Assembly: GCA_963815095.1 (NCBI GenBank)
Contig: CAWFFH010000005.1
Span: 1-64,000 of the forward strand
Length of the DNA stretch: 64,000 bases
DNA from: Candidatus Bathyarchaeota archaeon
GTDB lineage: Archaea; Thermoproteota; Bathyarchaeia; Bathyarchaeales; Bathycorpusculaceae
Direction: 5' to 3'
The translations under genes were made by a program, and so were the position numbers. Position 1 is the first letter of the stretch. The number at the start of each line of letters is the position of its first letter. Positions 26,557-54,324 of this stretch are shown here, piece after piece. Below the pieces are notes generated by a model. The model did no database searches. It saw only the letters and a list, made by a program, of their open reading frames with translations, and was not told where the DNA came from.

Positions 26557-27789
26557 TTGAGCACACGCAATATCTGGTCACTTAACCTACGGCGAAGAGC
26601 ACCAAAAAGCGAATATAACCTACCCAATCTGATAACAAACGACAAAACAGGCGTGCGAGTATGCTTCATCTCTTCCTACCCCCCAAATCACGCCAGATTA
26701 AGTGAGTACGCACAAAACTTAGTTACCGAATTGGCCAGTAGACCCACAATTAACCAAATGAACGTATTAACAGATCAAACCTCCAACACAAAAAAAGAAT
26801 TACCGAAAAATCCAAAAATTAAGGTAGTGAGGGTTTGGAAACAAGATCGCCCACTATCAATTCTCGGTGTCATGGTTCAAGTCCTAAAAATCAAGCCAGA
26901 TGTGGTTCACTTTAGCATAGGATATCAAAGTTTTGGAAAAAGCAGAATTTCCAACTTCACAGGCTTATCACTAGTTTTTCTATGCCGACTTTGCGGTCTC
27001 AAAGTTATAGTTATTCTACACAATTTAGCAGCACTCGTTGATCTTAAGAAAGTTAACCAAAAACCAAGCTTCACAAACAAAGCAGGCATCATGGTAGCAA
27101 CTAGGTTACTTCTATCTGCCTCAAGAGTCGTCGTTATGGTAAAATCTTACGAAGCCTACCTAAAAAAACACTACAACAACAAAGGAATACTTTTCATTCC
27201 ACACGGCAGCATGAGCCAAAACTGCAAATCAATAGATCCAGAGGACAAAATAATTTTGATGTTTGGCCACATGGGACCCTTCAAAGGACTCCCAACCATG
27301 CTCAAAGCCTTCGAAAAGATTACCAAAGAAAGAAATGATGTTCAACTCATCATCGCCGGCACAAGTCACCCCAACTTTCCAACATACCTAGACGAATTCA
27401 TCAAAAACGCACCGCCAAAAGTTGTTTTCACGGGGTATGTGCCTGAAAAAGATCTATGCAAAATCTTCGGAATCGCCGATGTCGTAGTTACTCCCTATTT
27501 ACTTGCAACAGGGACCAGCGGTGTGTTTCATTTGGCTTGCGGGTTCGGAAAACCCATCGTATCTTCAGATCTGCCGGAAATCAGAGAATTAGTTTCCAGC
27601 GGCGCCACGGCGCACTTAGTCACCCCTGGCGATGCAGACGCCCTCAAAAACGCAATCCTAAAAGTTCTCGACAACAAAGAAGCAGCCACCAAAATGGCCG
27701 AGCAGAACCTAAAGTTTGCTCAAAAAGAACGCTTAAGCCTCATAGCGCAGACCTACGAAGAAACCTATCTGGAACTCCTTAAACCATAA
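26557..27789 (+). CDS. Glycosyltransferase family 4
   Basis: ISSYPP, FGHMGPFKG, FTGYVPE and TSGVFHLACGFGKPIVSSDL motifs. Confidence 0.9.
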   Translation: MSTRNIWSLNLRRRAPKSEYNLPNLITNDKTGVRVCFISSYPPNHARLSEYAQNLVTELASRPTINQMNVLTDQTSNTKKELPKNPKIKVVRVWKQDRPLSILGVMVQVLKIKPDVVHFSIGYQSFGKSRISNFTGLSLVFLCRLCGLKVIVILHNLAALVDLKKVNQKPSFTNKAGIMVATRLLLSASRVVVMVKSYEAYLKKHYNNKGILFIPHGSMSQNCKSIDPEDKIILMFGHMGPFKGLPTMLKAFEKITKERNDVQLIIAGTSHPNFPTYLDEFIKNAPPKVVFTGYVPEKDLCKIFGIADVVVTPYLLATGTSGVFHLACGFGKPIVSSDLPEIRELVSSGATAHLVTPGDADALKNAILKVLDNKEAATKMAEQNLKFAQKERLSLIAQTYEETYLELLKP

Positions 27790-27959
27790 CAAATCAGCTG
27801 TTAGCTCCAAAATCCCGCTCATTGTTTCAAAAATTTTTTTCAGCCATAATAGAGCCAGAGAAGTTGTTGCTGCTGCTGCTGCAACAGGATTTCACACAGA
27901 GTTGCAACAACAATCAAACACTAATCCCCATCAAAACTAACGGCAAAATTGGAAAAAAA

Positions 27960-28008
27960 TTGTGTCGTCACCATTCTCCAAAATGTTGGGGTTGGCAAGC
28001 ACCTAAAC
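27960..28008 (+). repeat. Hairpin repeat copy 1 of 4
   Basis: TTGTGTCGTCACCATTCTCCAAAATGTTGGGGTTGGCAAGCACCTAAAC. Confidence 0.85.
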
Positions 28009-28112
28009 TTAACTCCGTTTTAATCATTGAGTCATTGCCCTTTTTATTTAGCCCAAAACGGTGGCAAAACATATATAATTACATTTGATATATACTGTAT
28101 TACGTGTAGGTT

Positions 28113-28412
28113 ATGTCCGAGTCTGAAACAATCTGTCTAAGACTATCCAAAGAAACAGCAAAAAAACTTCGGGAAATAGCTAAGAAAGAAGAAAAAGACC
28201 GATCAACTTTGATACGCGAAATTTTAGAAGAAGGTCTCGAAGAAAAAAACATAGAGCATGCCATAGAACTATACCAAAAAGGGCGTATAACAGGCTGGAA
28301 AGCAGCTCAGTTAGCAAACATTTCGCTGTGGAACTTCTATAAACTCTTAGCTGAAAAAGGTATCTTGCTACAATATTCTCAACAAGACCTCGAAGAAGAC
28401 CTCAAACCCTAA
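28113..28412 (+). CDS. UPF0175-family antitoxin (RHH plus HTH)
   Basis: ICLRL...DRSTLIRE RHH, then AIELYQKGRITGWKAAQLA. Confidence 0.85.
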   Translation: MSESETICLRLSKETAKKLREIAKKEEKDRSTLIREILEEGLEEKNIEHAIELYQKGRITGWKAAQLANISLWNFYKLLAEKGILLQYSQQDLEEDLKP

Positions 28413-28423
28413 AGGAAGAGACC

Positions 28424-28954
28424 TTGCCCGTAATCTCAGACACCAGTCCCCTGATATGGCTTGCGAAGGTGGGTAGAATAACTCTGCTAAAAGACCTTTT
28501 TGGGGAAGTCATTGTACCTCAAGAAGTGTACCTAGAAGCCGTAGAAAAAGGCTTACAATTCGGATTCACCGATGCCCAAGTCATAAAAGAATGCATAGAT
28601 GAAGGCTGGATAAAGCTCGCCAAACTAAACTCCAACGACCAAAGTTTACTCCAAAAGATCTCTGAGCATGCCTTGGAAATTCACTCAGGGGAAGCGCAGG
28701 CAATAGTTTTGGCTCGGGAAATGAAATTGCTGCTGCTGATGGATGAATCAGCTGGACGCGCATTCGCAGAAGCTTGGGGGCTAAAAGTAAAGGGAACAAT
28801 CTACGTGATCATATCAGCCCTCAGACGCGGTCTTATCACAGAAACCCAAGCTAAAGAAACCGTGTTAACCATGGTGACTAAGGGTTTTCGTTTAGAACCA
28901 ACTCTACTTGCGAGGTTAATTATCGAAATAGAAAAGACTCAGCTCAAAAAATAA
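28424..28954 (+). CDS. DUF3368 PIN-domain toxin
   Basis: VISDTSPLIWL, GEAQAIVLA, LLMDE and GTI motifs. Confidence 0.88.
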   Translation: MPVISDTSPLIWLAKVGRITLLKDLFGEVIVPQEVYLEAVEKGLQFGFTDAQVIKECIDEGWIKLAKLNSNDQSLLQKISEHALEIHSGEAQAIVLAREMKLLLLMDESAGRAFAEAWGLKVKGTIYVIISALRRGLITETQAKETVLTMVTKGFRLEPTLLARLIIEIEKTQLKK

Positions 28955-29007
28955 TCACTCCTCCATTCGCCATTTTTCTGTAAAAATAATAAAGCAATTA
29001 GAAAATA

Positions 29008-29055
29008 GTTGTGCCGTCATCATTCTCCACATTTGGGGTTGGCGAGCACCTAAAC
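29008..29055 (+). repeat. Hairpin repeat copy 2 of 4
   Basis: GTTGTGCCGTCATCATTCTCCACATTTGGGGTTGGCGAGCACCTAAAC. Confidence 0.85.
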
Positions 29056-29098
29056 ATGATTAGATCCAGTAAAACACAAACATCAAAATGAAATGGAC

Positions 29099-29443
29099 CT
29101 ACTTAAAGTCGCTATCGAGCACTTCTTTAATTAACGGCTTTAAAACTGGTAAATCTAAACACACGGCATCCCAGAGTATTTCTAGTTTAATGTAAGAATA
29201 TCCGTGAATTATTTTGTCTCTTATTCCAGCCATTTGTTTCCATGGGATTTGAGGATACATTTTCTTGGTTTCTGCTGGGATATGTTTGGTGGCTTCACCT
29301 ATGATTGCAAAATCCATTGTTACAGCTCGAATTGCCATCTTATTTTTGGTGAACTCTTCGAAAGTGGTGTTTTTGGTGAATTCTTCTATTTCTTCGATTG
29401 ATTCAAGGATGTCCACAAAATAGACTCGAAGTTGCTTGGTCAT
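29099..29443 (-). CDS. hepT: HEPN (DUF86) ribonuclease toxin
   Basis: IIGEATKHIP and PWKQMAGIRDKIIHGY (Rx4H motif). Confidence 0.92.
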   Translation of the reverse strand: MTKQLRVYFVDILESIEEIEEFTKNTTFEEFTKNKMAIRAVTMDFAIIGEATKHIPAETKKMYPQIPWKQMAGIRDKIIHGYSYIKLEILWDAVCLDLPVLKPLIKEVLDSDFK

Positions 29444-29739
29444 ACGTAAACAACTTCACTTAGTATTTGGTCTTTGAGAGTTGGTTTCAAACCGCCCCTT
29501 GCAACCAAATCTACCTTTACCCCAAGATGCTTGCTTAAAAAAATCTCCAACTCTACATACCTTAAAAGTCCCAAGTGGGCATTGTTTGAAAACTCGACTA
29601 GTACGTCTACGTCACTTTTCTTGGTTTGTTCTCCACGAACATAAGAACCAAAGACTCCTATGGTTTCTACTTGAAATTTCTCTTCCAGGATCGGCTTTAG
29701 CTCTTCTAGCTTCTTTTTGATGTATTTGGTGCTCTTCAC
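29440..29739 (-). CDS. mntA: Minimal nucleotidyltransferase antitoxin
   Basis: FGSYVRGEQTKKSDVDVLVEF and GVKVDLV. Likely GTG start at 29739. Confidence 0.9.
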   Translation of the reverse strand: MKSTKYIKKKLEELKPILEEKFQVETIGVFGSYVRGEQTKKSDVDVLVEFSNNAHLGLLRYVELEIFLSKHLGVKVDLVARGGLKPTLKDQILSEVVYV

Positions 29740-29854
29740 TTTGGTCCTGTTACAATAGGGCTTTAACCTTTTTAAATTCGTCGTCGGTCCAATTCGGTTT
29801 GGGCAAAAACTCGCAGGCAAAGACAGCTGACAGCCATTAGTTGATATGGAAAGT

Positions 29855-30038
29855 GGTTGTGCCGTCATCGTTCTCCATTAGTCTGGGTTTGGCGCGCACT
29901 TAAACCTGATTACGTTTTTCTCATATAACGGAAACTTCAGTATCCATAAGTTCTTGTTTTCAGCAGCCGGAACGTGACATATGCAAACGCATTCAAAAGC
30001 CCTTCAAAGCCTGTGCAACAAAAGCAACCCAAAACAAA
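29855..30038 (+). repeat. Hairpin repeat copy 3 (29855-29906) plus ~130-bp extension shared with copy 4
   Basis: GGTTGTGCCGTCATCGTTCTCCATTAGTCTGGGTTTGGCGCGCACTTAAACC, then TAACGG...TATGCA...CTGTGC...AAAGCAACC.AAAACAAA. Confidence 0.8.
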
Positions 30039-30074
30039 CCCCACCACAAAGTGCAAACACATATTCTTCCCCTG

Positions 30075-30293
30075 TCACTGGGTAGGCTGATTTAGCTTTT
30101 GATTTAACAGATGATCTTTGTGGACGTACTGCAATGAAACGGTTATTCGGTTTCTACTGAGGCTGTTTCGTATTTCATTGTTTATTCTTGCATTGCTTTT
30201 TCCTTTGCTTGCATGTCCAAAGCGAGTTATTTCCCAATTTTTCATGTCGCCTCTGATAATCTGAGGGTTACTTGTCAAGATGTAGAAGGGCAT
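30075..30293 (-). pseudogene. Probable C-terminal remnant of a larger protein (possibly GNAT-like)
   Basis: PFYILTSNPQIIRG..WEITRFGH reads like real protein but lacks an N-terminus. The family call is recall only. Confidence 0.35.
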
Positions 30294-30455
30294 TTTTGTT
30301 TGTGAACAGAAGTCTAAAGGGTTGGCCCTTTGTAATGAAAGAGGAGAAGATTATTTTTGGAAATCGAATCATAATATACTCTTAACCAAGTAAGAGTTTA
30401 ACAGGCGTTAATTTAAAAGAATAAATCACGAAATATCTGTATCTCCTGGCGGGGG

Positions 30456-32090
30456 TTATTGGAATCGAGTGACGTGCTTTCTAGCTAACAAAGTAAGCGC
30501 GACCATGACTAAAGCTAACGGTAAAATGAAGACGGCTGGAATTTCTGGTATCGGAGTTGGGGATGGAGTTGTATCGAGACTACTATTTTGGTTTGGAGTG
30601 TTGGTTGGTTGAGGCGTTTGGGGTAAAGAAGTTGGAGTTGCTGTTGGATTCGAAGAGGGATTAGATGTTGGGTTAGTTGTTGGCGTAGCTGTTGGGGCAA
30701 GTGTAGGTGTTGGTGTTGGAGTTGGAGAAGCAGTTGGAGTTGGCGTGGGCGTTGGTGTTGGGGTCAGATATGGCAAGCCTGGAATGGAATATGGGGTCAT
30801 CAGCGGAAAACGGTCCTCATTGCCTGAGTTAATTACATAGGGAGCATCGCCTATTCCATCCTTGTTGAAGTCTAAGCCTGCATAGTCTCCCCAGTAATTT
30901 CCGCCAGAGGGATAGCCGTTGTCCCAGTTATTGGTAATGTTATCAAAGAATTGGGTTGGCTTAAACACTATATTGTTGTGGAAAAATGTGTTGTTCCAAG
31001 AAGAAATAATTGATATAGTTTCTCCAACCCATCCAGTAGTATTAAAGTTGTTTCCCGTTATGCTGTTCTCGTAAATCAAACTATTATTAGAGTAAGCAAT
31101 GTCTAAAGAAGTAACCGGGTTGTTTACCATGTTGTTCCAATATATTTTGCAACTTAAAGAATCAACTATAGCAATGCCGCTCCATAAGCTATTTGTCACG
31201 GTGTTGTTAAAGACTGTAATGTTTGAAGAGAAGTAAACACCAATTGATGCATCTCCCCATCCAGACCGGTTAAGAAAGTTGTCGTAAACAATGATGTCGT
31301 TTGAGCTTTCGACATCTATTCCATCGGTCTCGCAGTTTGTGACCGTATTTTGAAAAATGCTGTTGTTAGATGTTACAAACAGCTTTATTGCCGTGGAGTC
31401 GTTGTTTGCGGTATTTCCGTAAATTTGATTGCCGGTGGAAGAATACCATAGGTAAATGCCGTCTAGAGTGTCGTTGACGCTATTGTTAAAAATCTGGTTG
31501 TTTTGAGAAATTTGAATAACTATCCCAAAGGTTTGGGATTCTGATCCTTGTCCAACGATAAGATTGTTTGAAAAAATACTGTTGCTCACGGTGTAACCAT
31601 AGATGGCATAGCCATTGTTGTTGGTGATTTTGTTTCCAGTTATAATTTCTGCGGATGAGTGATCTATTAGAATACCTTGATTGAAGTTGGTTATGGCGGT
31701 GTTTCGCACTGTTACATTGTTAGTTTGAGTTATGTTGATTCCTACTCCAACGCCTGATCCTAAGAGAGAATATCCTGACCCATCAATTACTATGTTATTT
31801 CGTTGTATACAAATTGAGGTTGAACTAATATTATTGGTGAAATTGTAAATGTTCCCGTTATGATTAATGGGTGCTGATGAAGGATCTACGCTTCCGTCGG
31901 CTCGGATATAGATTGTTCCGGAGTCCTGTGAAGCTACTGATTTGATAAAGGTCAGCGACAAGAAAGTTATGCATATTATAAGCAGTATCGCTATTGTCTT
32001 TGTCTTTTTCAAGCAAATCCCGTTTGCTAGGTAACTGAGAGGTTCTAATAAGAATTGTGTATTGCGATACAACGCGTTGACGGTGGTCAT
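30456..32090 (-). CDS. NosD/CASH right-handed beta-helix surface protein with PT linker and PEF-CTERM-like anchor
   Basis: IYIRADGSVDP, Asn-rich beta-helix repeats, GNYWGDY...DGIGDAPY...DRFPL, and IPE-TM-RK tail. Confidence 0.88.
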   Translation of the reverse strand: MTTVNALYRNTQFLLEPLSYLANGICLKKTKTIAILLIICITFLSLTFIKSVASQDSGTIYIRADGSVDPSSAPINHNGNIYNFTNNISSTSICIQRNNIVIDGSGYSLLGSGVGVGINITQTNNVTVRNTAITNFNQGILIDHSSAEIITGNKITNNNGYAIYGYTVSNSIFSNNLIVGQGSESQTFGIVIQISQNNQIFNNSVNDTLDGIYLWYSSTGNQIYGNTANNDSTAIKLFVTSNNSIFQNTVTNCETDGIDVESSNDIIVYDNFLNRSGWGDASIGVYFSSNITVFNNTVTNSLWSGIAIVDSLSCKIYWNNMVNNPVTSLDIAYSNNSLIYENSITGNNFNTTGWVGETISIISSWNNTFFHNNIVFKPTQFFDNITNNWDNGYPSGGNYWGDYAGLDFNKDGIGDAPYVINSGNEDRFPLMTPYSIPGLPYLTPTPTPTPTPTASPTPTPTPTLAPTATPTTNPTSNPSSNPTATPTSLPQTPQPTNTPNQNSSLDTTPSPTPIPEIPAVFILPLALVMVALTLLARKHVTRFQ

Positions 32091-32220
32091 AATAACATTT
32101 GTTATGGCATCGTTAAAAGTTAGGGGTTGACTGCTCTCGCCTGTACTCCATGTTAACTGAGGCGTTTTGAAGTCACCGAAGAAAAAAAGTTGTGCAGGTG
32201 ACGTCTTCCATTTGGAACAA

Positions 32221-32243
32221 GTTCAAATTCCAGTCGTCCTCCA
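32221..32243 (+). other. Possible highly degenerate tRNA 3'-end fragment
   Basis: GTTCAAATTCCAGTCGTCCTCCA resembles GTTCAAATCCC...CCA. Confidence 0.3.
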
Positions 32244-32350
32244 TTTCAATTTTGTTGCCAAAACTTTAGTTAAGAAACTTTGATATCAAACCTTTTTAGT
32301 ACAGAAAATTTTATTAGGTTTTGAGTTGCAGACTCTGACTCAGGGATGGC

Positions 32351-33760
32351 ATGATAAACTCGATTTCTAAAAGCGCCTTTGGAATTGTCACAGCGTTTAT
32401 TTTTTGCTTGCTTATTTTGTCTCCAATCATAAGTGCAAATACTTTACCAGCATGGGTCAAGACTTACGGGGCTCCAGAGATCGATAGTTATCCGATCAGG
32501 AATTTTGTCTTTCAGCGAAGTGAGGGCGGGTATGCTTTGTTTAGAGATAGCGAGCAAGAGTCTAACAACACGGTAATTCATCACCTTTGGTTCTCTGAGG
32601 TTGACATACAAGGAAAAACATTATTGGAAAAAGAGATTCTCTTGAATTCAGGTTACTCCCAAGTAATTCAGTCATCAGATGGTGGCTATGCAATTTTGGT
32701 TACCGGTGGGCTTGTCAAGCTCGACTCTGAAGGCAACATCCTATGGAGCCAAACATATGAAGGCGAATACACACTCGTTTTTTTGGATTCAATTTGCCAG
32801 ACAAAGGAAGGAGGCTTTATGATAGGCGGCATTATCAGTGGATATACTGGTCATTCAGAAGTAATCGGCAATACAAGAACTACTTACGAGTACCCTGAAC
32901 AATCTTGCCTAATCAAAGTGGATTCTACGGGTAAATTTGAATGGAACCAAACTTTTTCCATCGAGGACATGCCTACGCATCTGGTATCGGTGGTTCAAAC
33001 AAGTGATGGCGGTTACGCTGTAGCGGGAACGAGTGATGGTCAATATACGTCTTCTATTGCGCAGATTTTTTTTGCTAAAACAGACAATTCAGGAAACGTT
33101 CTTTGGGACAAATTGATCGGGGTAGAAAACGTCCAAGAGTATCCGACTTCGATGTTTCAGACAAGCGACGGCGGCTATATTATTGCAGGCGTACTGGCGA
33201 AGAATTCTTCTGCGAGTGCGCCGGAGTTGGTTAAACTTGATTCGACTGGCAATATTCAATGGCAACAACTATACGGTGGAGACCTAACTGCAGTAATTGC
33301 TTCGGTGATTCAAACAAACGACGGCGGTTACGTTTTTGCAGGAGATAAACAAGCGAGCGACACAAGTGACAACGTTTATGGATTTAATTTCTGGTTAGTT
33401 AATGTTGATTCTAAAGGCAATACACAGTGGGAACACTTATTTCCACTCTCAAGCTACGACTTTACTAATCAAGTTATTCAAACCAATGACAACGGATACC
33501 TTATAACAGGATACACCAGCCCTGATAGCAATTCTTTGTTGATTCCTTGTTTGATAAAGACTGATGAAAACGGCAATACATCCGACTTGTCTTTGCAGGA
33601 TGCTTCTAATCCTTCACCATCCATCCCAGAGTTAGCGTTATGGATAATTCTGCCCCTATTCATGGTAGCAACATTACTGACTTTGGTATTTGTTAGAAGA
33701 AAAACCCCAAAAACACCCTATTCACCCAAAAAACACGGAACAGCAAATGGTTGTGCCTAA
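32351..33760 (+). CDS. Secreted beta-propeller repeat surface protein with PEF-CTERM-like anchor
   Basis: Repeated QTSDGGY...G...K.DS.GN..W units, signal peptide, and IPE-TM-RRK tail. Confidence 0.85.
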   Translation: MINSISKSAFGIVTAFIFCLLILSPIISANTLPAWVKTYGAPEIDSYPIRNFVFQRSEGGYALFRDSEQESNNTVIHHLWFSEVDIQGKTLLEKEILLNSGYSQVIQSSDGGYAILVTGGLVKLDSEGNILWSQTYEGEYTLVFLDSICQTKEGGFMIGGIISGYTGHSEVIGNTRTTYEYPEQSCLIKVDSTGKFEWNQTFSIEDMPTHLVSVVQTSDGGYAVAGTSDGQYTSSIAQIFFAKTDNSGNVLWDKLIGVENVQEYPTSMFQTSDGGYIIAGVLAKNSSASAPELVKLDSTGNIQWQQLYGGDLTAVIASVIQTNDGGYVFAGDKQASDTSDNVYGFNFWLVNVDSKGNTQWEHLFPLSSYDFTNQVIQTNDNGYLITGYTSPDSNSLLIPCLIKTDENGNTSDLSLQDASNPSPSIPELALWIILPLFMVATLLTLVFVRRKTPKTPYSPKKHGTANGCA

Positions 33761-33928
33761 TAGTCTCCATTTATCTGAGGCTGGCGAGCACCTAAACCTG
33801 ACTATTATCTTATTTAACGGCAACTAAAACATCCTTCGCTCTTGCCTTCAACAGACGGAAATCGACCTATGCAGATGCATCCAAAAAAATCCTCTAAAGT
33901 CTGTGCGGCTAAAGCAACCTAAAACAAA
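33749..33928 (+). repeat. Hairpin repeat copy 4 (33749-33798) plus extension shared with copy 3
   Basis: GGTTGTGCCTAATAGTCTCCATTTATCTGAGGCTGGCGAGCACCTAAACC, followed by the same downstream blocks as copy 3. Confidence 0.75.
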
Positions 33929-34028
33929 GAAACCAAAAAACATCACCCACCCACCAATTTTATTAAATCAACCCTTCAAAGAAAAGTATAAATGGATTTT
34001 TAGCCTTATGTCCATATGGTAATATGCC

Positions 34029-34163
34029 ATGTCTTTGAGAGTTCAAATCGACACCAAATTGGAACGCAAATTCAGAGAAGTTGCTATGAAAAAATACGGC
34101 TACACAAAAGGCGCTTTAAGCAATGCTTTTTCTCCACTTCACATAGCAAGTTTAAATGAGTGA
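34029..34163 (+). pseudogene. Truncated RHH-type antitoxin
   Basis: Manual translation MSLRVQIDTKLERKFREVAMKKYGYTKGALSNA..., 44 aa, with no partner toxin. Confidence 0.55.
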
Positions 34164-34186
34164 TTGTCCCACTACATATTGGTGGG

Positions 34187-34435
34187 ATGATGGAACATAT
34201 TACGCTCAAAATAGATTCAAAAGGCAGACTTTGCATTCCAGCAGAAGTCAGGGAAGAAATCGGAGACACAGCTACGCTGAAAAAAACACCCGAAGGTTAC
34301 CTCATAATCCCCGGCAAACAAGAAAATTTTCTGACAGAATTCCAGAAAGTCATCGAATCAAAACACAAAAGAACAGGAAAACCGGAAAACTGGTCACCTG
34401 AAAAAATGAAGTCAATCTGGAGCCAAACTAAATGA
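34187..34435 (+). CDS. AbrB/MazE-family antitoxin
   Basis: KIDSKGRLCIPAEVRE motif, overlapping the downstream PIN gene (ATGA-type coupling region). Confidence 0.88.
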   Translation: MMEHITLKIDSKGRLCIPAEVREEIGDTATLKKTPEGYLIIPGKQENFLTEFQKVIESKHKRTGKPENWSPEKMKSIWSQTK

Positions 34436-34866
34436 TTTTTGGCTTAGATGCCAACATAATCTGCTATGCCCTGGATGAAGAATATCCTGAACACAAAAAA
34501 GTTAGCAATTTGCTCTTTAATTTATCTGATGAAAACAAAATTGCCCTAAACCCAACCACAATCCATGAAACATACCATACGCTTGTTTTTGGGCAGAAAT
34601 GGATTCCACAAGACGCGGCTGAAACACTAAAAATGCTGCTAAAGCATCCTTACATTAAATTTCTAAATCAAACAATGAAAAGCACAACAATTGCTTTAAC
34701 CTTGTCTGTGAAGCATGGGCTCGGCGGAAGAGATGCACTCATAATAGCCAACTTTTTAGCAAATGAGGTACCCATCATGTATACTCACGATAGGGAAATC
34801 TTGAAGATTCAAAAAATCTTATGGAAAAAATCCAATCTAACATTCAAGGACCCTCTAATCAAGTAA
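34432..34866 (+). CDS. vapC: VapC/PIN toxin
   Basis: LDANII, IHE, RDALIIA and THD acidic PIN residues. Confidence 0.85.
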   Translation: MIFGLDANIICYALDEEYPEHKKVSNLLFNLSDENKIALNPTTIHETYHTLVFGQKWIPQDAAETLKMLLKHPYIKFLNQTMKSTTIALTLSVKHGLGGRDALIIANFLANEVPIMYTHDREILKIQKILWKKSNLTFKDPLIK

Positions 34867-35129: not shown

Positions 35130-35402
35130 ATGGCAACAATTCTAGTAAAAAATCTGCCAGAAGAACTACTAAGAGAACTAAAACGGCTCAAGGTAGAACT
35201 AGGCTGTAAAACCTGGGCTAACCTCCTTTCCGAACTAGTTGCCAGCGAAAAGATTCTGCTCAATGAAGAAAAAAATAACCAGACTGACACTGGCGTCCAG
35301 AATTTTCTAAACCTAAGGACAGCAGTCTCAGCCAAATGGAATAGCGGTCCCACAGTACTGGAAGAAACACGCAGGTCTAGAAAACATGAAACAATCAAGT
35401 AG
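35130..35402 (+). CDS. Putative antitoxin (RHH/FitA-like)
   Basis: MATILVKNLPEEL N-terminus. Overlaps the downstream PIN gene. Confidence 0.75.
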   Translation: MATILVKNLPEELLRELKRLKVELGCKTWANLLSELVASEKILLNEEKNNQTDTGVQNFLNLRTAVSAKWNSGPTVLEETRRSRKHETIK

Positions 35403-35832
35403 ACTTCTTACTTTAGATGCCAATGTCCTTATCGCCGCATTAAAGGCAGATGAACCTTACAGCGAAAAATGTGCCGAAATACTTTCTAAAGTCCCAAACC
35501 AATTTCAGCTAACAGAACCAAGCATAATCTACCAGGAAGTATGCGGAACTCTTGCAAGAAAAACAAGCCTGGAGATAGCCAACGAAGCAAGAAAACAAAT
35601 GGACCTTATGATTAACCCAAAACTATTGACCAATTGTGACAAAAACCTTTGCACATCAGCATTTTGCCTATGCTCAGAATACAACACATACTCAATCGAT
35701 GCACTCTACCTACAAGTAGCTCTAAAAAATAAAGCAATCCTTGTTTCATTAGACAAAGAAGACTTCATAGATAGAATAAAAAAGAAAAAACCACCCATCG
35801 AAGTTTACAATGTCTCCGAATTTCCCTACTGA
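35386..35832 (+). CDS. vapC: VapC/PIN toxin
   Basis: LDANVLI, QEV, IDALYL and LVSLD motifs. Confidence 0.85.
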   Translation: MKQSSRLLTLDANVLIAALKADEPYSEKCAEILSKVPNQFQLTEPSIIYQEVCGTLARKTSLEIANEARKQMDLMINPKLLTNCDKNLCTSAFCLCSEYNTYSIDALYLQVALKNKAILVSLDKEDFIDRIKKKKPPIEVYNVSEFPY

Positions 35833-35857: not shown

Positions 35858-36163
35858 TCATGGCTTGAAATTTGTTGAGGCTGTAAGGCTTTCGTTGTGA
35901 TTTAGTTGGGTTCTTTTGCTTTTGATGAAAATCATAATTTTGGCGAAATCCCGCTTCACTGTCCGCTCACTGACATGAAGCTGCCGCGCGATTTGTTTGA
36001 TGCCCAAGCCTTGATTTTGCAGCTCCAGGGCTTGTTTGCGTCGGTTCGTTTCTGCTTTGAATTTTTCTAAGCTTTTGTAGTACTTGCCAATTCGCCGATA
36101 CCTCGCTTCCCTTTTCACACTATTGTGTTTTTTTGTGTCAAAAACTGCATTGCGCATGCTCAA
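35858..36163 (-). CDS. Basic HTH DNA-binding protein, possibly a mobile-element remnant
   Basis: RRKQALELQNQGLGIKQIARQLHVSERTVKRD HTH. Confidence 0.7.
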   Translation of the reverse strand: MSMRNAVFDTKKHNSVKREARYRRIGKYYKSLEKFKAETNRRKQALELQNQGLGIKQIARQLHVSERTVKRDFAKIMIFIKSKRTQLNHNESLTASTNFKP

Positions 36164-36637
36164 ATAGCCCCCAAACGTGCGATAACGGATTTTTTATGTT
36201 CCCTAAAAACCTCAAAAAACAACCCAAAACACCAAATATCCTTGAATTTTCGACTTTTCATCCATAAATCACTCTTAAATTTTTTGAGTCCCAATGATTT
36301 GTGACAAAAGTGCCATATTTTATCAAACCAAATATAACCTTTAACACATCACTTCAAGGCAGCAAACAACTTTTTGCCACCACCCAAACCCCCCAAAATA
36401 GCCCTCAAGCCAATCAACGCAACCCCTTTAAGACCAGCGAATGGTCTAAGAGACGAAGGTTGAAAAATCTGCTCTTATGTTATGTCTTATCTTTTTTATC
36501 AGCTACCGCAACCTCTACAGGTAACGCAGGTTTTTTTGCAACAAAAATTTTTTCGCTAGCAGAGCTTCATTTACTATCTCTATGGTTAGGTGCAATAATA
36601 ATTAAATAGGGAACGAGCCAATAGATATTGAGAAGAC

Positions 36638-36832
36638 ATGACGATTGAAATTGAGTTAAAGGAAATAAAAAGTCTGCTCTCAGAGTTGAAACAGAAAATG
36701 GATATTCTGATTGAAGAAAAAGAAACTTCAACAATGATGGGTTTATCCGAGAAATCGCTTAAGGACTTCTTTTCAAAAGAACCTGAAATTTACACAATTA
36801 AAGATATAAAAGCTAAGGTTAACTGTGTTTGA
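36638..36832 (+). CDS. Putative antitoxin
   Basis: Small ORF with LSEKSLKDFFSKEPEIY that overlaps mazF by 4 nt. Confidence 0.7.
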   Translation: MTIEIELKEIKSLLSELKQKMDILIEEKETSTMMGLSEKSLKDFFSKEPEIYTIKDIKAKVNCV

Positions 36833-37155
36833 AAGGAAAAATAGTCCTTATACCTTTTCCGTTCACAGACCTAACAGCAACCAAACTAAGGCCTGCACTT
36901 GTTCTTTATGAAGGAGAAAAAGATGTCGTAGTGGCTTTCATTTCCTCCAGAACGGACAAGCCAAAACCCGTTGACATCATCATCAACGAAAAAAATGTTG
37001 AATTCAAACAAACAGGACTCAAACTAACCTCAACCATAAAACTCGACAAGGTCGCAACAATATCAAAAGATCTCATTATAGGCGAAATCGGTGAAGTAGG
37101 ACCTAAACTTAAAAAAGAAGTAAACCGCAAAATCACGGAAATCTACAATTTGTAA
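36829..37155 (+). CDS. mazF: PemK/MazF-family toxin
   Basis: GKIVLIPFPFTDLTATKLRPALVL, VVAFISS and TGLKLTSTIKLDK motifs. Confidence 0.9.
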   Translation: MKGKIVLIPFPFTDLTATKLRPALVLYEGEKDVVVAFISSRTDKPKPVDIIINEKNVEFKQTGLKLTSTIKLDKVATISKDLIIGEIGEVGPKLKKEVNRKITEIYNL

Positions 37156-37386: not shown

Positions 37387-40300
37387 TTATAATGTTGCTG
37401 TTACACTCGCGCCGTTAGCTCTTGGACTTGGATCTCTAATGATCACGGTAGGAGCCGAAGTGTAACCGCTGCCTGGATTTGTAAGCACTATGCCGATAAT
37501 TACGCCATTTGAGACTCTAGCTGTTGCCGTTGCGCCTGTTCCGCCTCCGCCTGTGATGATTATAGCCGGAGTAGTATAGCAGCTACCGCCACTCTGAACA
37601 ACAAAACCTGTAATTGATAATGTTCCAACTGTGATTGTTGCATTGTTAGATTGGGCAGACCCAGTGTTTTTGTCTGTAACTATTAGGTAGATAGTTGAGT
37701 TTCCAGAAGATGTTGGGGTGAAAGTCCAGCTGCTTTCATTGGCATTTGAAATTTGGGTCCCGTTGAGGTACCACTGATAAATGTATGGTTGTGCCCCCCC
37801 AGAAACGGTACTGTTGAATGTTTGCGGTTCTCCTATTGTCATGTTACCGGATACGGGATTGATTGAAACGATAAGCTGAGAATAAACTATGATGTCTGTT
37901 ATGATGTTTGATTGAGTTTTGATGCCAAAAGCATCAGTGATGTTTAGGTAGATTTTGTAGTGACCCTCTAAAGTTGGCGTGAAAGTCCAATTCTGGCTGT
38001 TTGCTCCCGAAACAGCGGTGTCGTTGAGATACCACTGGAAAGAATACGGAGTTGTGCCTCCCGAAACTATAGAATCAAACGTTTGCGACTGCCCAAGGTA
38101 CATTCTAACCTGCACAGGCGAGATAGTTACATTTGTTAAAGATTCAACCATTAAGGTCGCATTATTTGACTGAATCATTGCAGTGTTATTATCTGCGACG
38201 ATAAGGTAGACACTGAAATCTCCAGATGATACAGGAATGAACGTCCAGGTGCTAGAGCTTGCATTTAGAATTGGACTGCCATTAAGGTACCATTGATAAC
38301 TATAAGGTTGGGATCCACCTGTCACGATACAGTTGAATAGCTGTGGTGTTCCAATGGTCGTATTAATTAAAGCAGGACTTATCGAGGCTGAAAGTAAGGG
38401 GTAAACTGTTATGTTTGCTTCAATGTCTGATCGAGCAATTATGTTGAATGCGTCAGTGACCTTTAGGAAGATTCTGTAGGTTCCAGCAGAGGTAGGTGTG
38501 AAGATCCAGTTTTCACTGGTTGCGCCCAAAATTGCGGAGTTATTTTGGTACCACTGGTAAGAATATGGAGCGGTTCCTCCTGATACGGTTGAATTGAAAG
38601 TTTGGGATTCTCCAAGGTACATTTTTTCTTTAATCGCATTGAAACTAACAACCAAAGGCGTTTCAACCAATACTGTTGCATTATTGGATTGTGCGGTGAA
38701 AATGTTGTTGTCAGTTACTTTTACATAGATTTTGTAGGGTCCTATTGATTGGGGAATGAATGTCCACGAGCTGTTGTTTGTATCTGGAACTGCATTGTCG
38801 TTGAGGTACCATTGATATGTATAGAGTTGGTCCCCGCCGGAGACGATGCTGACGAAGGTTTGTGGGGTTCCAACTGTGGTGTTCATTGAGGTTGGACTGA
38901 TTGAAACAGCTAATTGGGGATAAACCATGATGTCTGCTACTACATTGGATTGAGTTTTGGTGTTGAGAGCATCTGTTATGTTGAGGTAAATGTTGAAATT
39001 TCCAGTCTGAGATGGGTTAAAATTCCAGATTGAGTCGGCTGCACCAGAAACAGCGGTTCCATTCAATACCCACTGATAAGTGAAAGGTGCCACACCGCCT
39101 ACTACAGTTGAGTTAAACTGTTGTGATCCGCCGAAAACTATGTTTGCCGAGGTTGGGCTAATTGAAACTGACAGTTGAATGTAAACCAAAATATCGGTCA
39201 AAATGTTAGATTGAGCTTGGCTGTTGAGGCTGTCAGTAACATTGAGATAAACGTTGTAGTGACCTGTTTGTGTTGGTGTAAAGTTCCATGTCGAACTATT
39301 CGCCCCAGTTACAGCAGTGCCGTTAAGGAACCATTGGTAAGTTAAGGGTTGAGCTCCTCCTTGAACAGTAGAGTTGAACGTTTGCGTGGTCCCAACGATC
39401 ATATTAACCAAAGTGGGGCTGATTGAAACGGTCAATTGGGGATAAACAGTGATGTCTATGACAATGTTAGATTGGACTTTGAAGTTTAATGCATCGGTTA
39501 CATTGAGATAAATTCTATAGTGTCCCGCAACTGTTGGGGTGAAGTTCCAAACGCTAGAAGTAGCTCCTGTCACAGCGGTATCATTGAGGTACCATTGGTA
39601 GGCATAAGGAGTGAGGCCGCCTACTATGGTCGAATTGAATTGTTGCGTGTCCCCAACGGTTATGTTCACTGAATTGGGATTGATTGTTGCAGATGGCTGT
39701 GAATAGACGTTGATAGTAGCCATGTTGGATTGGACTGTGCAGTTTAAGCTGTCAGTTGCATTAAGATAGATACCATAGGACCCTGTGAAGTTTGCTGTGT
39801 AAATCAAAGTCGAGGTTGTTGAGCCTGATATTGCAGTACCGTTCGCATAACACCATTGATAAGTATACGGGGCGAGGCCTCCAGTAACTGCAGAGTTGAA
39901 TTGCTGATATCCGCCTAAAGTTATGTTTGCGAATAATGGGCTAATAGAAACCGACGGCGGAGCATAAACTTCGATATCGTTAACAACATTGGATTTCGTT
40001 TGATAATTGAGACTATCAGTAACATTTAGGTAAATGCTGTATTGTCCACTTTGAGTTGGAGTGAAAGTCCAGTTAGCGCCTGTGGCAGCTGAAACTGCAA
40101 TTTCATTCAGATACCATTGATAAGCATAAGGCGGACTGCCTCCTGAAACTGAAGAATCAAAAATCTCAGACTTTCCCAGACCAATTCTAACATTAGTTGG
40201 AGTGATATTAACGGTAGGAATTGACGTTAGATTAGCTGAAAAACTAAAAGAGTCACCCGAATCCGTAATCCACAAATCATCCCAAACCGAATACGTTGAA

Positions 40301-43086
40301 ACAGCAACCGTTTGACTATTCAAATCAAAAGAATAAATCCTAACTGAACACGCACCCTGCAAATCATCCGTTTCTTGCCGATCATATTCTATTTGAGTCC
40401 TGCCATTAACTTCGTTATGAACATTAACCGCTGGATCACCACCACAGTGCCCATTAAGAGTCATGAACACATTCGGATATTCATTGAGAAGATTTTGCAG
40501 TTTAACTTCCCACGTACCATCTCCAATACTATTAGCAAAGTCACCATTGGGAGAAGATAAGTAAACGTGAGTCGCAACAATGATGTTATAACTTAAGTTA
40601 GAATAGGTATTCAATAATCCCCTCATCCAACTGAGCGTAGAATCGTTGGCAAAAGCCTCTATATCAATTACCAAAAAATTGTAATTTCCCACTGAAAACT
40701 TTGCAGCAGTATTCTTTCCTTCAAAACAATCCCCCGCCCAATAACTATCGTTCACAAAAGACAATGAATTAAACGCCGAATACTGCTCTCCAACCCAACC
40801 ACTATTTGGATCACCGCTCCAACCATCATCAGTCGTCTGATCATGATTCCCTGCACACCAAACATAAGGAACGCCATTGTTTGCTAAAATACTCATACCA
40901 GTGTTCGCATCTTGCCACTGTGAAGCATCCCAATATTCGTTAATTATGTCTCCAGTATGCACAACCATCTGCAAATTGTACATTCCAGAGCTATTCACAA
41001 TCCAATTGCACAATAGACTATACAAATCAGGATTATCTGGAAGATAAGCAGAATTCAAAGTTTGAGTGTCCGTTATTTGCATTATCGAAAAATTGTAAGC
41101 CGGCGGATTAACTGTTACGTTTGCGATGTTGGATTGGAATTGGTTGTTCAAATTATCGGTTACATTTAGGTAGATTTTGTAGTTTCCAGTTGAGGTTGGG
41201 GTAAACGTCCAGCTTTGGCTAGTTGCTTTCAAGACAGCCGTATCATTTTGGTACCACTGATAGCTATAAGGAGCGTTTTCTATGGAAATTGATGAACTGA
41301 ACGTTTGAAACCGTCCCAAATTCATCCCAACATGGGTTGGACTTATTGCCACCGGAGGGCGAGTGGTTACGTAAATCCCAATTGACCACCAATAATCTCC
41401 TCCACCATCCACAGCAACTATCCAATTGGTACCATTCCACCAAGGATCAATAGTGTGCATGGCCCAACTATTCCAGCCGGTACCGCTAGCACTTATTAGT
41501 GGGCTTTCAGGAATTTCATGTTCAGCATAATAAGTTTCGTTAAGTACATCAACCTGAAAAGCTCGATCAGCTTCACCATAAGCCACATCGCCCTTCTGAG
41601 CAAACCTTATGATTTTGTCAGAATCAAAAACTGTAACTCTTCCTCCTCCACGCACTTTAGATGAGTCATTCGTGATTAGAGGACTCATCGGATGCTCATG
41701 CCAAGAATCAGGGTTCGCGAGATTAAAAGAATAGAAAAGACGAAGATCACTATCCGTTCCAGTAAACATCCACCACTCACTATTGTAACGGAAAATTGAA
41801 GCATCAGCAGGTATGAAATTTTGATTCGAAATCAAAGTACTAACAAGGGTCCAAGAGTAAGGAAAATTCGTAGCTTTGTACAGAGTAACCCCCAAGGGAA
41901 AAGAATTCGGAATCATATAGTAAATTCCCTCCCATTTGAACACGTAAGGATACGACAGATAAGAAGACGAATCAGAGATCACAATTTGATTATAAGTCCA
42001 GCTTAAGCCATCACCACTTGTAGCAACTCCAATTTCCTGAGCCGAATCTGTTTCCACCTCAAAAAACATGTACCAGGAACTTCCTTCATGAAAAATGAAA
42101 GGGTCAGCAACAAAGTTGGCGTTTCTATCAGTGACATCTGCCGCTGTTAGAACAGGATTCACTGCACCAGGAATAAGATCAAAGAAATCTTGTGTAACAT
42201 TTGACCAATCGGGCGATAATAAATTGGTTACAGACTGATTATAAACTACGATATTATTTGCTATGTTGGATTGGACTTGGTTACTTTGACTGTCGACTAC
42301 AATTAGATAAATTTTGTACGTTCCTGCTTGGGTTGGAGTAAAGTCCAAATTTTGATCCGTTCCCCCCGAGGCTGCTGTATCATTAATATACCATTGATAA
42401 GAGTAGGGTGACGAGCCTCCATTCACAGTTGAAGAAAATTGTTGATAACCACCAAGAGGTATGTTCACCGAGGTTGGACTAATTAACGCGGACAACTCAG
42501 AATTATCCAGATTTTCACTTGCGTAAATACTCATAGCTCCAATTGGATCTGGACCACCCCATTCTGGACCGAACGGATCGCTAAACCCCTGATCATATGC
42601 ATTTCCATTGTGGACTCGCACGCCCGAATCAAGCACTATACGAAGATTCAAAGACTCATCGCTACAAATCGAGAGCCAATAAACCGAGCCGGAAGTTACC
42701 ACCTCAGGCGTTTGCAATGGAAAGTCCACCCATAAAAAAGATGTAGTCACAATTACTTCGTTCGATTGCGCAATTAAATCGCCAGGTTGACCTGAATCGT
42801 CAGCATAAATCGCTACTCTGACGGGTCCGGTTGTGTAGGCCCGCGAGATATAGGCATATATGTCTGTTACTTGTCCATCGCTACCACATATAAAAGAAGA
42901 AGCTGATTTAGCGTTAGGATCATTCTGATCAGAAAAGGAGCCGATTGAAGTATTTCCGAAAGTGAACGAGCTAGAATTCAACAGATTTTGCGAAAAACCA
43001 GGTGAGCCACCAAAAGACAAAGGAAAACTTACAGTCACCAGCAAAAACACTACAAAAAGAGTCAATGCTTTTAGCTGTAAATTCAT
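37387..43086 (-). CDS. 1899-aa secreted multidomain protein: N-terminal beta domain, five-bladed GH43/GH130-like propeller, metallophosphoesterase, 12 PKD/Ig-like repeats and a Gly-rich C-terminal domain
   Basis: Signal peptide, FVADPF/LSYPYVF/DASIF propeller motifs, ITDTQ/HTGDI/AGNHD/ATH/NGH phosphoesterase motifs, and 12 S(I)SP...GG..PY.YQWY repeats. Confidence 0.85.
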   Translation of the reverse strand: MNLQLKALTLFVVFLLVTVSFPLSFGGSPGFSQNLLNSSSFTFGNTSIGSFSDQNDPNAKSASSFICGSDGQVTDIYAYISRAYTTGPVRVAIYADDSGQPGDLIAQSNEVIVTTSFLWVDFPLQTPEVVTSGSVYWLSICSDESLNLRIVLDSGVRVHNGNAYDQGFSDPFGPEWGGPDPIGAMSIYASENLDNSELSALISPTSVNIPLGGYQQFSSTVNGGSSPYSYQWYINDTAASGGTDQNLDFTPTQAGTYKIYLIVVDSQSNQVQSNIANNIVVYNQSVTNLLSPDWSNVTQDFFDLIPGAVNPVLTAADVTDRNANFVADPFIFHEGSSWYMFFEVETDSAQEIGVATSGDGLSWTYNQIVISDSSSYLSYPYVFKWEGIYYMIPNSFPLGVTLYKATNFPYSWTLVSTLISNQNFIPADASIFRYNSEWWMFTGTDSDLRLFYSFNLANPDSWHEHPMSPLITNDSSKVRGGGRVTVFDSDKIIRFAQKGDVAYGEADRAFQVDVLNETYYAEHEIPESPLISASGTGWNSWAMHTIDPWWNGTNWIVAVDGGGDYWWSIGIYVTTRPPVAISPTHVGMNLGRFQTFSSSISIENAPYSYQWYQNDTAVLKATSQSWTFTPTSTGNYKIYLNVTDNLNNQFQSNIANVTVNPPAYNFSIMQITDTQTLNSAYLPDNPDLYSLLCNWIVNSSGMYNLQMVVHTGDIINEYWDASQWQDANTGMSILANNGVPYVWCAGNHDQTTDDGWSGDPNSGWVGEQYSAFNSLSFVNDSYWAGDCFEGKNTAAKFSVGNYNFLVIDIEAFANDSTLSWMRGLLNTYSNLSYNIIVATHVYLSSPNGDFANSIGDGTWEVKLQNLLNEYPNVFMTLNGHCGGDPAVNVHNEVNGRTQIEYDRQETDDLQGACSVRIYSFDLNSQTVAVSTYSVWDDLWITDSGDSFSFSANLTSIPTVNITPTNVRIGLGKSEIFDSSVSGGSPPYAYQWYLNEIAVSAATGANWTFTPTQSGQYSIYLNVTDSLNYQTKSNVVNDIEVYAPPSVSISPLFANITLGGYQQFNSAVTGGLAPYTYQWCYANGTAISGSTTSTLIYTANFTGSYGIYLNATDSLNCTVQSNMATINVYSQPSATINPNSVNITVGDTQQFNSTIVGGLTPYAYQWYLNDTAVTGATSSVWNFTPTVAGHYRIYLNVTDALNFKVQSNIVIDITVYPQLTVSISPTLVNMIVGTTQTFNSTVQGGAQPLTYQWFLNGTAVTGANSSTWNFTPTQTGHYNVYLNVTDSLNSQAQSNILTDILVYIQLSVSISPTSANIVFGGSQQFNSTVVGGVAPFTYQWVLNGTAVSGAADSIWNFNPSQTGNFNIYLNITDALNTKTQSNVVADIMVYPQLAVSISPTSMNTTVGTPQTFVSIVSGGDQLYTYQWYLNDNAVPDTNNSSWTFIPQSIGPYKIYVKVTDNNIFTAQSNNATVLVETPLVVSFNAIKEKMYLGESQTFNSTVSGGTAPYSYQWYQNNSAILGATSENWIFTPTSAGTYRIFLKVTDAFNIIARSDIEANITVYPLLSASISPALINTTIGTPQLFNCIVTGGSQPYSYQWYLNGSPILNASSSTWTFIPVSSGDFSVYLIVADNNTAMIQSNNATLMVESLTNVTISPVQVRMYLGQSQTFDSIVSGGTTPYSFQWYLNDTAVSGANSQNWTFTPTLEGHYKIYLNITDAFGIKTQSNIITDIIVYSQLIVSINPVSGNMTIGEPQTFNSTVSGGAQPYIYQWYLNGTQISNANESSWTFTPTSSGNSTIYLIVTDKNTGSAQSNNATITVGTLSITGFVVQSGGSCYTTPAIIITGGGGTGATATARVSNGVIIGIVLTNPGSGYTSAPTVIIRDPSPRANGASVTATL

Positions 43087-52252: not shown

Positions 52253-52582
52253 TTATTCGGCTGCGCCTAAAATTTTGACTTTTATGGATATTTCTTCGGA
52301 GAGTTGTTCACGTGTTTTTCCTTCTGTTGCGATTCCTAGTTTTTGGGCGGTTTCTAGTAGCATTTCGTCTTTTGTTTTTATGGCGGGTTTTGTGGTTGTG
52401 TTGGCTGCTGGTTTTGTTGGTGTGTCTGAGTTTGCTGCGTCGTTGAATTCTTTGGATGCTTTGCTGAATTCGCCTTTTGCTTGTCCTAGGGCTCGGGCAA
52501 ACTGGGGGATTTTTGCTGGACCCCACATTATGATGACGATGGCGACAACGCCGATAATAATCCATTCCCAACCTTCAAGCAT
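52253..52582 (-). CDS. tatA: Twin-arginine translocase TatA
   Basis: EWIIIG...WGPAKIPQFARALGQAKGEF, next to tatC. Confidence 0.92.
   Translation of the reverse strand: MLEGWEWIIIGVVAIVIIMWGPAKIPQFARALGQAKGEFSKASKEFNDAANSDTPTKPAANTTTKPAIKTKDEMLLETAQKLGIATEGKTREQLSEEISIKVKILGAAE
52326..52582. repeat. 257-bp direct repeat, copy A (tatA coding sequence)
   Basis: Identical by eye to 54068..54324. Confidence 0.92.
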
Positions 52583-54081: not shown

Positions 54082-54324
54082 TTTTTGGGCGGTTTCTAGT
54101 AGCATTTCGTCTTTTGTTTTTATGGCGGGTTTTGTGGTTGTGTTGGCTGCTGGTTTTGTTGGTGTGTCTGAGTTTGCTGCGTCGTTGAATTCTTTGGATG
54201 CTTTGCTGAATTCGCCTTTTGCTTGTCCTAGGGCTCGGGCAAACTGGGGGATTTTTGCTGGACCCCACATTATGATGACGATGGCGACAACGCCGATAAT
54301 AATCCATTCCCAACCTTCAAGCAT
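54058..54324 (-). pseudogene. tatA: Second tatA copy lacking its C-terminus (repeat copy B, 54068..54324)
   Basis: Identical to tatA from ATG to LGIAT, then runs into chaperonin antisense sequence. Has its own GGAG upstream. Confidence 0.8.

Follow-up and report, generated by a model that had tools for sequence, protein, structure and literature searches.

Why are toxin-antitoxin (TA) and surface-protein genes in an uncultured archaeon separated by copies of one short hairpin-like repeat? This question arises from a stretch of 64,000 nucleotides of Candidatus Bathyarchaeota archaeon (GCA_963815095.1, contig CAWFFH010000005.1, positions 1 to 64,000), which is referred to in its full length as the window. 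A preliminary description proposed that the repeats mark an undescribed cassette-capture system. We found that the repeat is real and lineage-restricted and that it is a conserved, probably structured site. There is strong evidence for modular exchange at the repeat. We tentatively favor, at slightly less than even likelihood, the view that the repeat is a structured cis-element, ancestrally located downstream of surface-locus genes, that multiplied and now serves as a homology joint for host recombination, similar to the PeSLs of T4-type phages.

The four same-strand copies that had been claimed are present, with cores of 46-48 bp starting at 27960, 29009, 29857, and 33751. The 20-nt 5' arm matched three sites in the window (copy 4 was missed) and none in 100 shuffles. 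In the source genome (G000; 2.69 Mb, 98% complete), a profile hidden Markov model built from the four copies and a covariance model built from 84 copies recovered only these four, and the next-best matches had E values of 0.18 and 1.56. The copies are not scattered genome-wide; all four lie in one 5.8-kb stretch. A search of Rfam with window positions 27700-34200 gave no match to the repeats down to an E value of 5. The core has no consistent open frame, and its origin as a decayed gene was ruled out. Copies 3 and 4 have ~190 bp more in common beyond the core (74% identical), which the preliminary description did not mention. This extension (EXT) is non-coding relic DNA of a D5/AbrB-like element. 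The array is composed as follows (genomes, contigs, and loci are designated below by G, C, and L numbers).

27960..28007, plus strand: core of repeat copy 1, with a weaker tail motif ~13 bp before it and a head motif ~12 bp after it
28008..29008, plus strand: module A, an RHH/UPF0175 antitoxin-like gene (28113-28412) and a DUF3368 PIN-like toxin gene (28424-28954) (Pfam)
29009..29054, plus strand: core of repeat copy 2
29055..29856, minus strand: module B, MNT (~29440-29739) and HEPN (29099-29443) genes, inverted relative to the repeat (PF01909, PF01934)
29857..29904, plus strand: core of repeat copy 3
29919..30077, plus strand: EXT, AC-rich and non-coding, a relic from a plasmid-like element in which this DNA separates genes for a D5-type primase-helicase and a small AbrB-like protein
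30118..30311, minus strand: gene fragment with homologues elsewhere in the genome (blastn/tblastx)
30456..32090, minus strand: secreted beta-helix/NosD-domain protein with a Pro/Thr linker and a PEF-CTERM-like tail (Pfam; tail read directly)
32351..33760, plus strand: secreted repeat protein with a PEF-CTERM-like tail, its stop codon inside copy 4 (no Pfam family above the cut-off)
33751..33796, plus strand: core of repeat copy 4, with a 2-nt deletion in the 5' arm
33806..33929, plus strand: another EXT copy, shorter than the first; after it comes the truncated beginning of a TA module

Pfam agreed with the module content described previously, namely UPF0175/RHH with DUF3368, an inverted HEPN-MNT pair, two PEF-CTERM-like secreted proteins, and further TA pairs. 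Module A has its own promoter-like region. The MNT start in module B was taken from 99-aa homologues, and among six homologues of this module the repeat is present on both sides in two, on one side in two, and on neither side in two. The tails of both secreted proteins consist of P-E-x-P/A, a transmembrane segment, and a basic stretch; no close DNA homologue of the NosD-domain protein gene was found in the fetched arrays. The last codons of the upstream open reading frame (ORF) overlap copy 4, and the truncated module start after this copy is 97% identical to a module that follows the repeat in G011.

Module exchange occurs within the core, and there is no single crossover point. This result was obtained from 202 distinct copies in ~30 genomes and metagenome contigs. 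When pairs of copies were classed by flank similarity, with pairs of intermediate similarity left out, 78 were alike upstream only, 283 downstream only, and 8 on both flanks. Minority alleles went with the upstream module as far as the last base outside the core (0.28 versus 0.11 in the matched control) and with the downstream module from the first base past it (0.21 versus 0.11), and core alleles tracked neither flank. These values derive from cross-genome pairs (41 upstream-only and 122 downstream-only, EXT-EXT pairs removed) that are not independent of each other. Among 22 pairs with near-identical flanks, the break preceded the loop in some and followed it in others. Loops resembled each other more within arrays than across them (0 of 2000 permutations), as expected from conversion.

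Flank inheritance that ends at both core edges also fits a Cas1-type process (CRISPR or casposon), in which each module insertion would duplicate the 47-bp core as its target site, and we take the core length and end letters to resemble those of long CRISPR repeats. However, adjacent cores did not resemble each other more closely than other cores in their array (p 0.13, 17 arrays), the core varies in length from 46 to 51 bp, and module ends are not inverted repeats. Furthermore, Cas1 gave only partial matches in three of five genomes and none in G011 or G042. This reading is largely refuted, and we regard it as highly improbable.

Exchange was also evident from individual modules. Module A has 14 homologous rows in other arrays (84-93% identical; two rows represent one locus). 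The repeat lies 5-14 bp upstream in 13 of these rows, and the fourteenth has a copy there that a stricter scan missed. The upstream neighbors of the module A homologues differ. In contigs of related strains, the repeat is joined to other modules of the window, including the PemK pair. The comparison of related genomes therefore bore out the proposal that the copies sit at the module boundaries of a TA-rich, cassette-like array: modules were gained, lost, and reordered at the repeat, and flank inheritance stopped at the core edges.

Arrays are strongly polarized. Neighboring copies less than 10 kb apart were co-oriented in 142 of 143 cases, and the median spacing was 1.6 kb (150 intervals). The largest array genome, G011, contains 22 copies in 47 kb. 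Among 102 modules of 2.5 kb or less, 67 carry a gene of a Pfam-labeled TA family (44 on the same strand as the repeat and 23 on the opposite strand) and four are empty units of ~250 bp. The remainder are mostly single genes for a flippase, epimerase, glycosyltransferase, NUDIX, GDSL, or small exported protein, and glycosylation genes adjoin most of the arrays examined. Many TA pairs in arrays have no neighboring repeat. The G011 arrays also contain near-perfect tandem duplications of 1.5, 7.0, and 5.0 kb (L067:7620-10940; L067:17764 to L068:11200; L070:7485-14241), which may reflect amplification or an assembly effect.

The boundaries of the repeat were clear in an alignment of 164 copies. Conservation steps up at the first T of the core and drops after its last A, arm positions are mostly 90-99% conserved, the core length is 46-51 bp, and the loop is free in sequence and length. 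Weaker motifs flank the core: before it, an A-rich tail of ~13 bp whose last letters are GTAG-like, and after it, a head of ~12 bp. The terminal GTT/AAC pair of the preliminary description is not a fixed feature; both triads are present in only 78 of the 202 copies, and the outermost G and C are part of the flanking modules. On the plus strand, the core can be paired so that a basal helix of 4 bp is followed by a bulged A and a helix of 5 bp; then come a short bulge on the 5' side, an inner helix, and the loop, and the 3' tail is unpaired. No archaeal promoter motif was seen in the core by eye.

Folding of the core is modest and best as plus-strand RNA. Single window copies folded no better than shuffles (z -0.1 to -0.8 as DNA and -0.2 to -1.0 as RNA). 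Across 178 copies, the mean z was -2.1 for plus-strand and -0.7 for minus-strand RNA, and -1.0 and -0.6, respectively, for DNA. Covariation did not exceed shuffles in 84 mostly close copies (122 of 500 shuffles were as high). However, 18 copies hand-picked for divergence, with other genera included, scored 0.222 against 0.155 +/- 0.017 (0 of 500 shuffles), and their number of pairs with two-sided change was reached by 8 of 500 shuffles. In these copies the five basal pairs are invariant, partly by construction of the search pattern, and the middle and inner stems change on both sides. Since copy selection and relatedness inflate this test, the fold is supported, not proven. The hairpin that had been proposed is not apparent from folding of the window copies, but its structure appears to be kept once divergent copies are included. 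An invariant basal box with changing inner stems fits the possible recognition of the hairpin base by a protein.

The two-arm pattern (two or fewer mismatches) was found in 33 of 119 genomes of the same genus, in the single genome of the sister genus, and in one of 80 genomes of other families. Reversed patterns gave two matches in 201 genomes; the G015 match among the 33 looks like chance, and the matches in G015, G144, and G120 are doubtful, G120 and G144 not having been recovered by the covariance model. In a collection of 185,579 genomes, the exact pattern occurred at 42 loci, all labeled Bathyarchaeota or Bathyarchaeia; 39 metagenome stretches matched as well. Among 212 genomes from the other genera of this family, a relaxed basal-box pattern (TGTGCC, 24-48 free bases, GAGCACCTAAA) matched nine (control, two in 301). 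Five of the nine, in four genera, were accepted (G238, G246, G343, G419, and G423). The matches in G338, G376, G390, and G400 represent one orthologous stretch between divergent genes with an interior z of ~0 and were dropped as probable chance, as were relaxed matches inside ORFs in G038 (which has a perfect inner stem) and G068 and one in G103. Probable-chance matches were removed before covariation was counted. A slightly stricter form of the relaxed pattern was absent from 252 genomes outside the family in a class-wide sample. Viral contigs had no strict match, and their 107 relaxed matches were at about the chance level by estimate, with an interior folding z of -0.3.

Solitary and array-edge copies suggest what the repeat may have been before it multiplied. 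They lie 0-150 bp downstream of co-oriented genes and have a pyrimidine-rich upstream flank without the tail motif. The preceding gene encodes an exosortase in G246, G099, and G092 (three genomes, two genera), a small membrane protein in G085, G088, G091, and G096, and an epimerase or glycosyltransferase in G002, G055, and G006. A GC-rich stretch resembling a gene for a structured RNA, possibly the signal recognition particle RNA, comes after the solitary hairpin of G246 (L300:1240-1420, minus strand).

Based on these findings, we propose that the functional unit would be a plus-strand fold in which the basal helix is invariant, an A is bulged, the 3' tail is fixed and unpaired, and the two inner stems and loop may vary. 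The ancestral solitary copy would have been located just downstream of a co-oriented surface-locus gene (exosortase, small membrane protein, glycosyltransferase, or epimerase), where it would probably act at the 3' end of the RNA or as a boundary bound by a protein. In one genus, the repeat may have multiplied through duplication and deletion. Co-oriented copies would then provide short homology for host recombination, by which the DNA between two copies could be excised, duplicated, or replaced from related species. The exchange itself is visible in the flanks of the copies; host enzymes are favored as its agent, since the architecture is loose and neither a crossover point nor an enzyme is evident. 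TA pairs resist deletion through selection, as in superintegrons, and we propose that they accumulate in arrays for this reason, together with the single surface-glycan genes and the plasmid-like and provirus-like relics that are found there.

Several results weigh against host recombination at a former 3' element. The repeat is tied to the downstream module, as in the module A rows, and its distance from the upstream gene is 13-222 bp, with the repeat absent in 6 of 12 scorable rows. A fixed downstream tie with variable upstream spacing is a poor match to an element of the 3' untranslated region. The 23 TA modules encoded on the opposite strand are antisense to the fold. Moreover, the variable loop leaves two identity blocks of ~20 bp, which are short for strand-exchange proteins. 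The head and tail motifs are borne by the modules, and tail enrichment follows the prediction of a circular-cassette system: the mean tail score was 7.0 at 95 sites with another copy 2.5 kb or less upstream and 1.7 at 40 sites with none within 6 kb (p 5e-5). The head motif showed no such difference by the presence of an upstream copy.

In an alternative view, a dedicated recombinase, encoded elsewhere or on passing mobile elements, would read the folded single-stranded base and excise and insert circular modules. Tail, core, and head would then form the complete site, and solitary copies would be primary insertion sites. The fixed downstream tie, the head and tail motifs, and the invariant base are explained better by such an enzyme. 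The repeat follows an attC-like logic, with a basal box invariant across genera, inner stems that covary in the divergent copies, a free loop length, and unpaired bases in the 3' arm; the near-complete co-orientation and the existence of empty units are also consistent with it. However, DNA folding is weak, crossovers are not confined to one point, many array TA pairs lack the repeat, and module ends showed no circle-form complementarity beyond shuffles (88 modules, 14 registers). The extended site joins its cargo at variable points, even mid-gene, truncating genes. These imprecise joints, together with the G011 tandem duplications, which end away from the repeat, speak against a tidy cassette model. 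We consider a dedicated recombinase of this type possible, but somewhat improbable.

An enzyme was sought in and around the arrays; the preliminary description had suggested a search for a linked tyrosine or HUH recombinase. None tracks the repeat convincingly. Tyrosine recombinases (PF00589) were not matched inside the arrays of 10 genomes. A scan of 118 near-array proteins (family representatives and long ORFs from 1446 ORFs) matched recombinase-type families only three times, namely an IS110, an IS66, and a DDE transposase. The integron integrase model TIGR02249 remained below its cut-off in all five genomes searched (best 47.9 versus 265 bits), and a serine recombinase (PF00239) was matched in none of five genomes. 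The Y1 HUH family (PF01797) occurred in 10 of 33 repeat-bearing and 32 of 87 other genomes (p 0.67); it is missing from most array-bearing genomes, including G000. In G071, an intact IS110 transposase gene with clear ends lies inside EXT, ~130 bp from the repeat (L100:4550-6070); IS110 was not found at a fixed position relative to the repeat, and the family is present in 23 of 121 genomes but not in G011 or several other array genomes. G000 itself carries four copies of a distant IS110. The tyrosine recombinases of G000 were rejected as the array enzyme, being tRNA-type or fragmentary and far from the array, and none of 20 integrase loci fetched from other genomes had the repeat or EXT.

A divergent tyrosine-recombinase subfamily is a weak lead. 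It was found in 10 of 33 repeat-bearing and 4 of 87 other genomes, which include non-independent kin, and this distribution favors a dedicated recombinase. However, its loci are unrelated to the arrays and carry no repeat, and no close member was found in the five repeat holders of other genera or, with the query used, in G011, G028, G001, G043, and G092. One member lies 5.6 kb from the array of G087 and was dropped as an array-linked enzyme; the same site is occupied in G042 without repeats. Members are missed or barely matched by Pfam and are located beside RNase Z-like or HD-domain genes, not tRNAs (L096:6960-8063, minus strand; L220-L228). In the first catalytic motif, six of eight aligned members have Leu where two have Arg, a position that we assume to be the first catalytic arginine of tyrosine recombinases.

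The repeat may alternatively be the attachment site or end of small integrating elements, whose insertion and decay would leave behind their ends and addictive TA genes. EXT follows 58 of the 202 copies and corresponds to the DNA that separates a D5-type primase-helicase gene from a small AbrB-like gene. The element to which it belongs is plasmid-like and integrase-less, with a helix-turn-helix (HTH) gene, two small ORFs, the D5 primase-helicase, the AC-rich spacer, and the AbrB-like gene (L073:2341-7013, L088:4271-8917, L285:2067-7147); a search of the ESM Atlas with one element protein gave only weak hypothetical or HTH matches. This lineage is situated between repeats in five arrays (G028, G042, G063, G078, and G092), and provirus-like relics, terminase-bearing elements in this reading, end 14-130 bp from the repeat in G039, G085, and G099. 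Close relatives of the AbrB-like protein occur in 9 of 33 repeat-bearing and none of 87 other genomes, and those of the D5 protein in six and one, respectively. On the other hand, the same D5 lineage has no repeat at three loci (G043, G092, and G009), and its wider relatives carry an integrase and end at a tRNA site. EXT and the AbrB-like gene occur throughout the genus without the repeat (64 of 120 genomes), viral contigs contain neither a copy of the repeat family nor a D5 relative, and solitary copies in other genera lie among host genes. We therefore consider this origin unlikely. The presence of both types of relic indicates that arrays trap several element types. Element ends and Cas1-type duplication fit less well than either host recombination or a dedicated recombinase.

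The array is preceded by a glycosylation cluster and followed by TA pairs without an adjoining repeat.

26557..27789, plus strand: glycosyltransferase GT4, the final gene of the glycosylation cluster preceding the array (Pfam PF00534/PF13692)
34160..34866, plus strand: MraZ/AbrB-like antitoxin and PIN toxin pair, with no adjoining repeat (Pfam)
35130..35832, plus strand: RHH antitoxin and PIN toxin pair, repeat-less here (Pfam)
36638..37155, plus strand: small antitoxin-like ORF and PemK toxin, repeat-less here (Pfam)

The repeat adjoins six of nine homologous rows of the RHH-PIN pair and precedes both homologues of the PemK module. Other repeated DNA was noted nearby. A short repeat of a CTG-run type, with ~10 dispersed relatives in the genome, occupies 27837-27936 just before copy 1, and in G028 and G071 this type is joined without a gap to the opening bases of the hairpin repeat. 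An HTH ORF and its upstream DNA (35858-36420, minus strand) represent what is left of a dispersed element. The genome holds at least six relatives of this element, one of which (contig C3, ~1,342,000-1,344,400) adjoins a terminase-large-subunit-like ORF and a HEPN-MNT pair. The minus-strand gene at 37387-43086 encodes a 1899-aa secreted protein of ~87-aa repeats, and its first 229 nt recur at 44559. Two 257-nt copies (52326-52582 and 54068-54324; 100% identical, 1742 bp apart) may be element ends or a recent duplication. A second TA-rich cluster of G000, on contig C3 at ~1,499,000-1,503,000 (L234), has no hairpin repeat and lies beside a broken integrase; its modules are 77-87% identical to array modules of other genomes.

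Among known systems, integrons and CALINs are similar in several respects. Co-oriented hairpin sites delimit exchangeable modules of ~1 kb with TA-rich cargo, bases are predicted to be unpaired on one arm, the terminal stem-loop is variable, and sites are more alike within a genome. However, attC sites are defined by RYYYAAC and GTTRRRY boxes (PMC5027507), which are present in none of 200 copies on either strand; bare AAC and GTT triads occur in eight of 200 per strand. The repeat has no unpaired central spacer of 5-6 nt, and its core is shorter than 57 bp and conserved in sequence. Furthermore, the arrays have no IntI and no single R-box crossover, and their cargo is loosely fitted. The repeat array is not an integron, since the attC boxes, IntI, and the single crossover were all looked for and not found. 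In the main text of the report on archaeal integrons, cassette arrays are described only with canonical attC sites, and the string "Bathy" is absent; its supplements may list such genomes (PMC9668308). The exchange of modules that cassette capture implies has been confirmed. As to a dedicated capture enzyme, no linked candidate was found among integron integrases, serine resolvases, intact Cas1, and Y1 HUH enzymes, crossovers have no single point, and cargo joints are imprecise. It could nevertheless be that an archaeal gene-cassette system arose independently of integrons and, with a recombinase acting in trans, shuffles TA and surface-glycan genes as circles and diversifies the cell surface, a possibility that we regard as somewhat improbable.

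The REP/REPIN-RAYT and IS200/IS605 systems share a bulged hairpin that has a GTAG-like tetranucleotide at its 5' foot and, a short distance to its 3' side, a CT dinucleotide. In contrast, the present repeat is not dispersed and never forms inverted doublets, its GTAG is only 44-71% conserved per base and is part of the upstream module, and Y1 enzymes are absent from most array genomes. The resemblance to attC and to REP/TnpA substrates in the preliminary description therefore does not amount to membership of either. The 3' edge of the repeat can also be read as TAA, six bases, and YTA, which is similar to a Xer/dif site, and pdif modules also carry TA pairs. However, the six-base spacer varies between copies, all sites are direct rather than alternating, and no XerA-like gene common to the array genomes was seen. 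The repeat also differs from a CRISPR array or casposon in the invariant duplicated repeat, Cas1, and terminal inverted repeats, and from serine recombinase att/res sites in that PF00239 is absent from five genomes searched and the varying loop length allows no fixed arm spacing.

PeSLs of T4-type phages are conserved stem-loop cassettes in hypervariable regions, where modules are shuffled by recombination between copies; the published account invokes no dedicated site-specific enzyme and expects circles (PMC2839356). Modular shuffling by recombination between copies is common to both. In contrast to PeSLs, the present repeat is located on a cellular archaeal chromosome, has no evident promoter, forms a bulged hairpin without a following U tract, and is associated with TA and surface-glycan cargo. 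No description of it was found in the literature searched, the scope of which did not extend to subscription journals and supplements. The repeat is undescribed within that literature and works like an integron array or a PeSL region with different sites. In one abundant uncultured lineage, it organizes TA and surface-glycan genes over tens of kilobases, and modules are 84-93% identical between species. A dedicated enzyme, if there is one, would be part of a second structure-reading recombination system beside the integron; if there is none, a chromosomal cis-element would have been co-opted as a shuffling joint, as PeSLs were in phages. The invariant basal box provides a defined bait for finding the binding protein.

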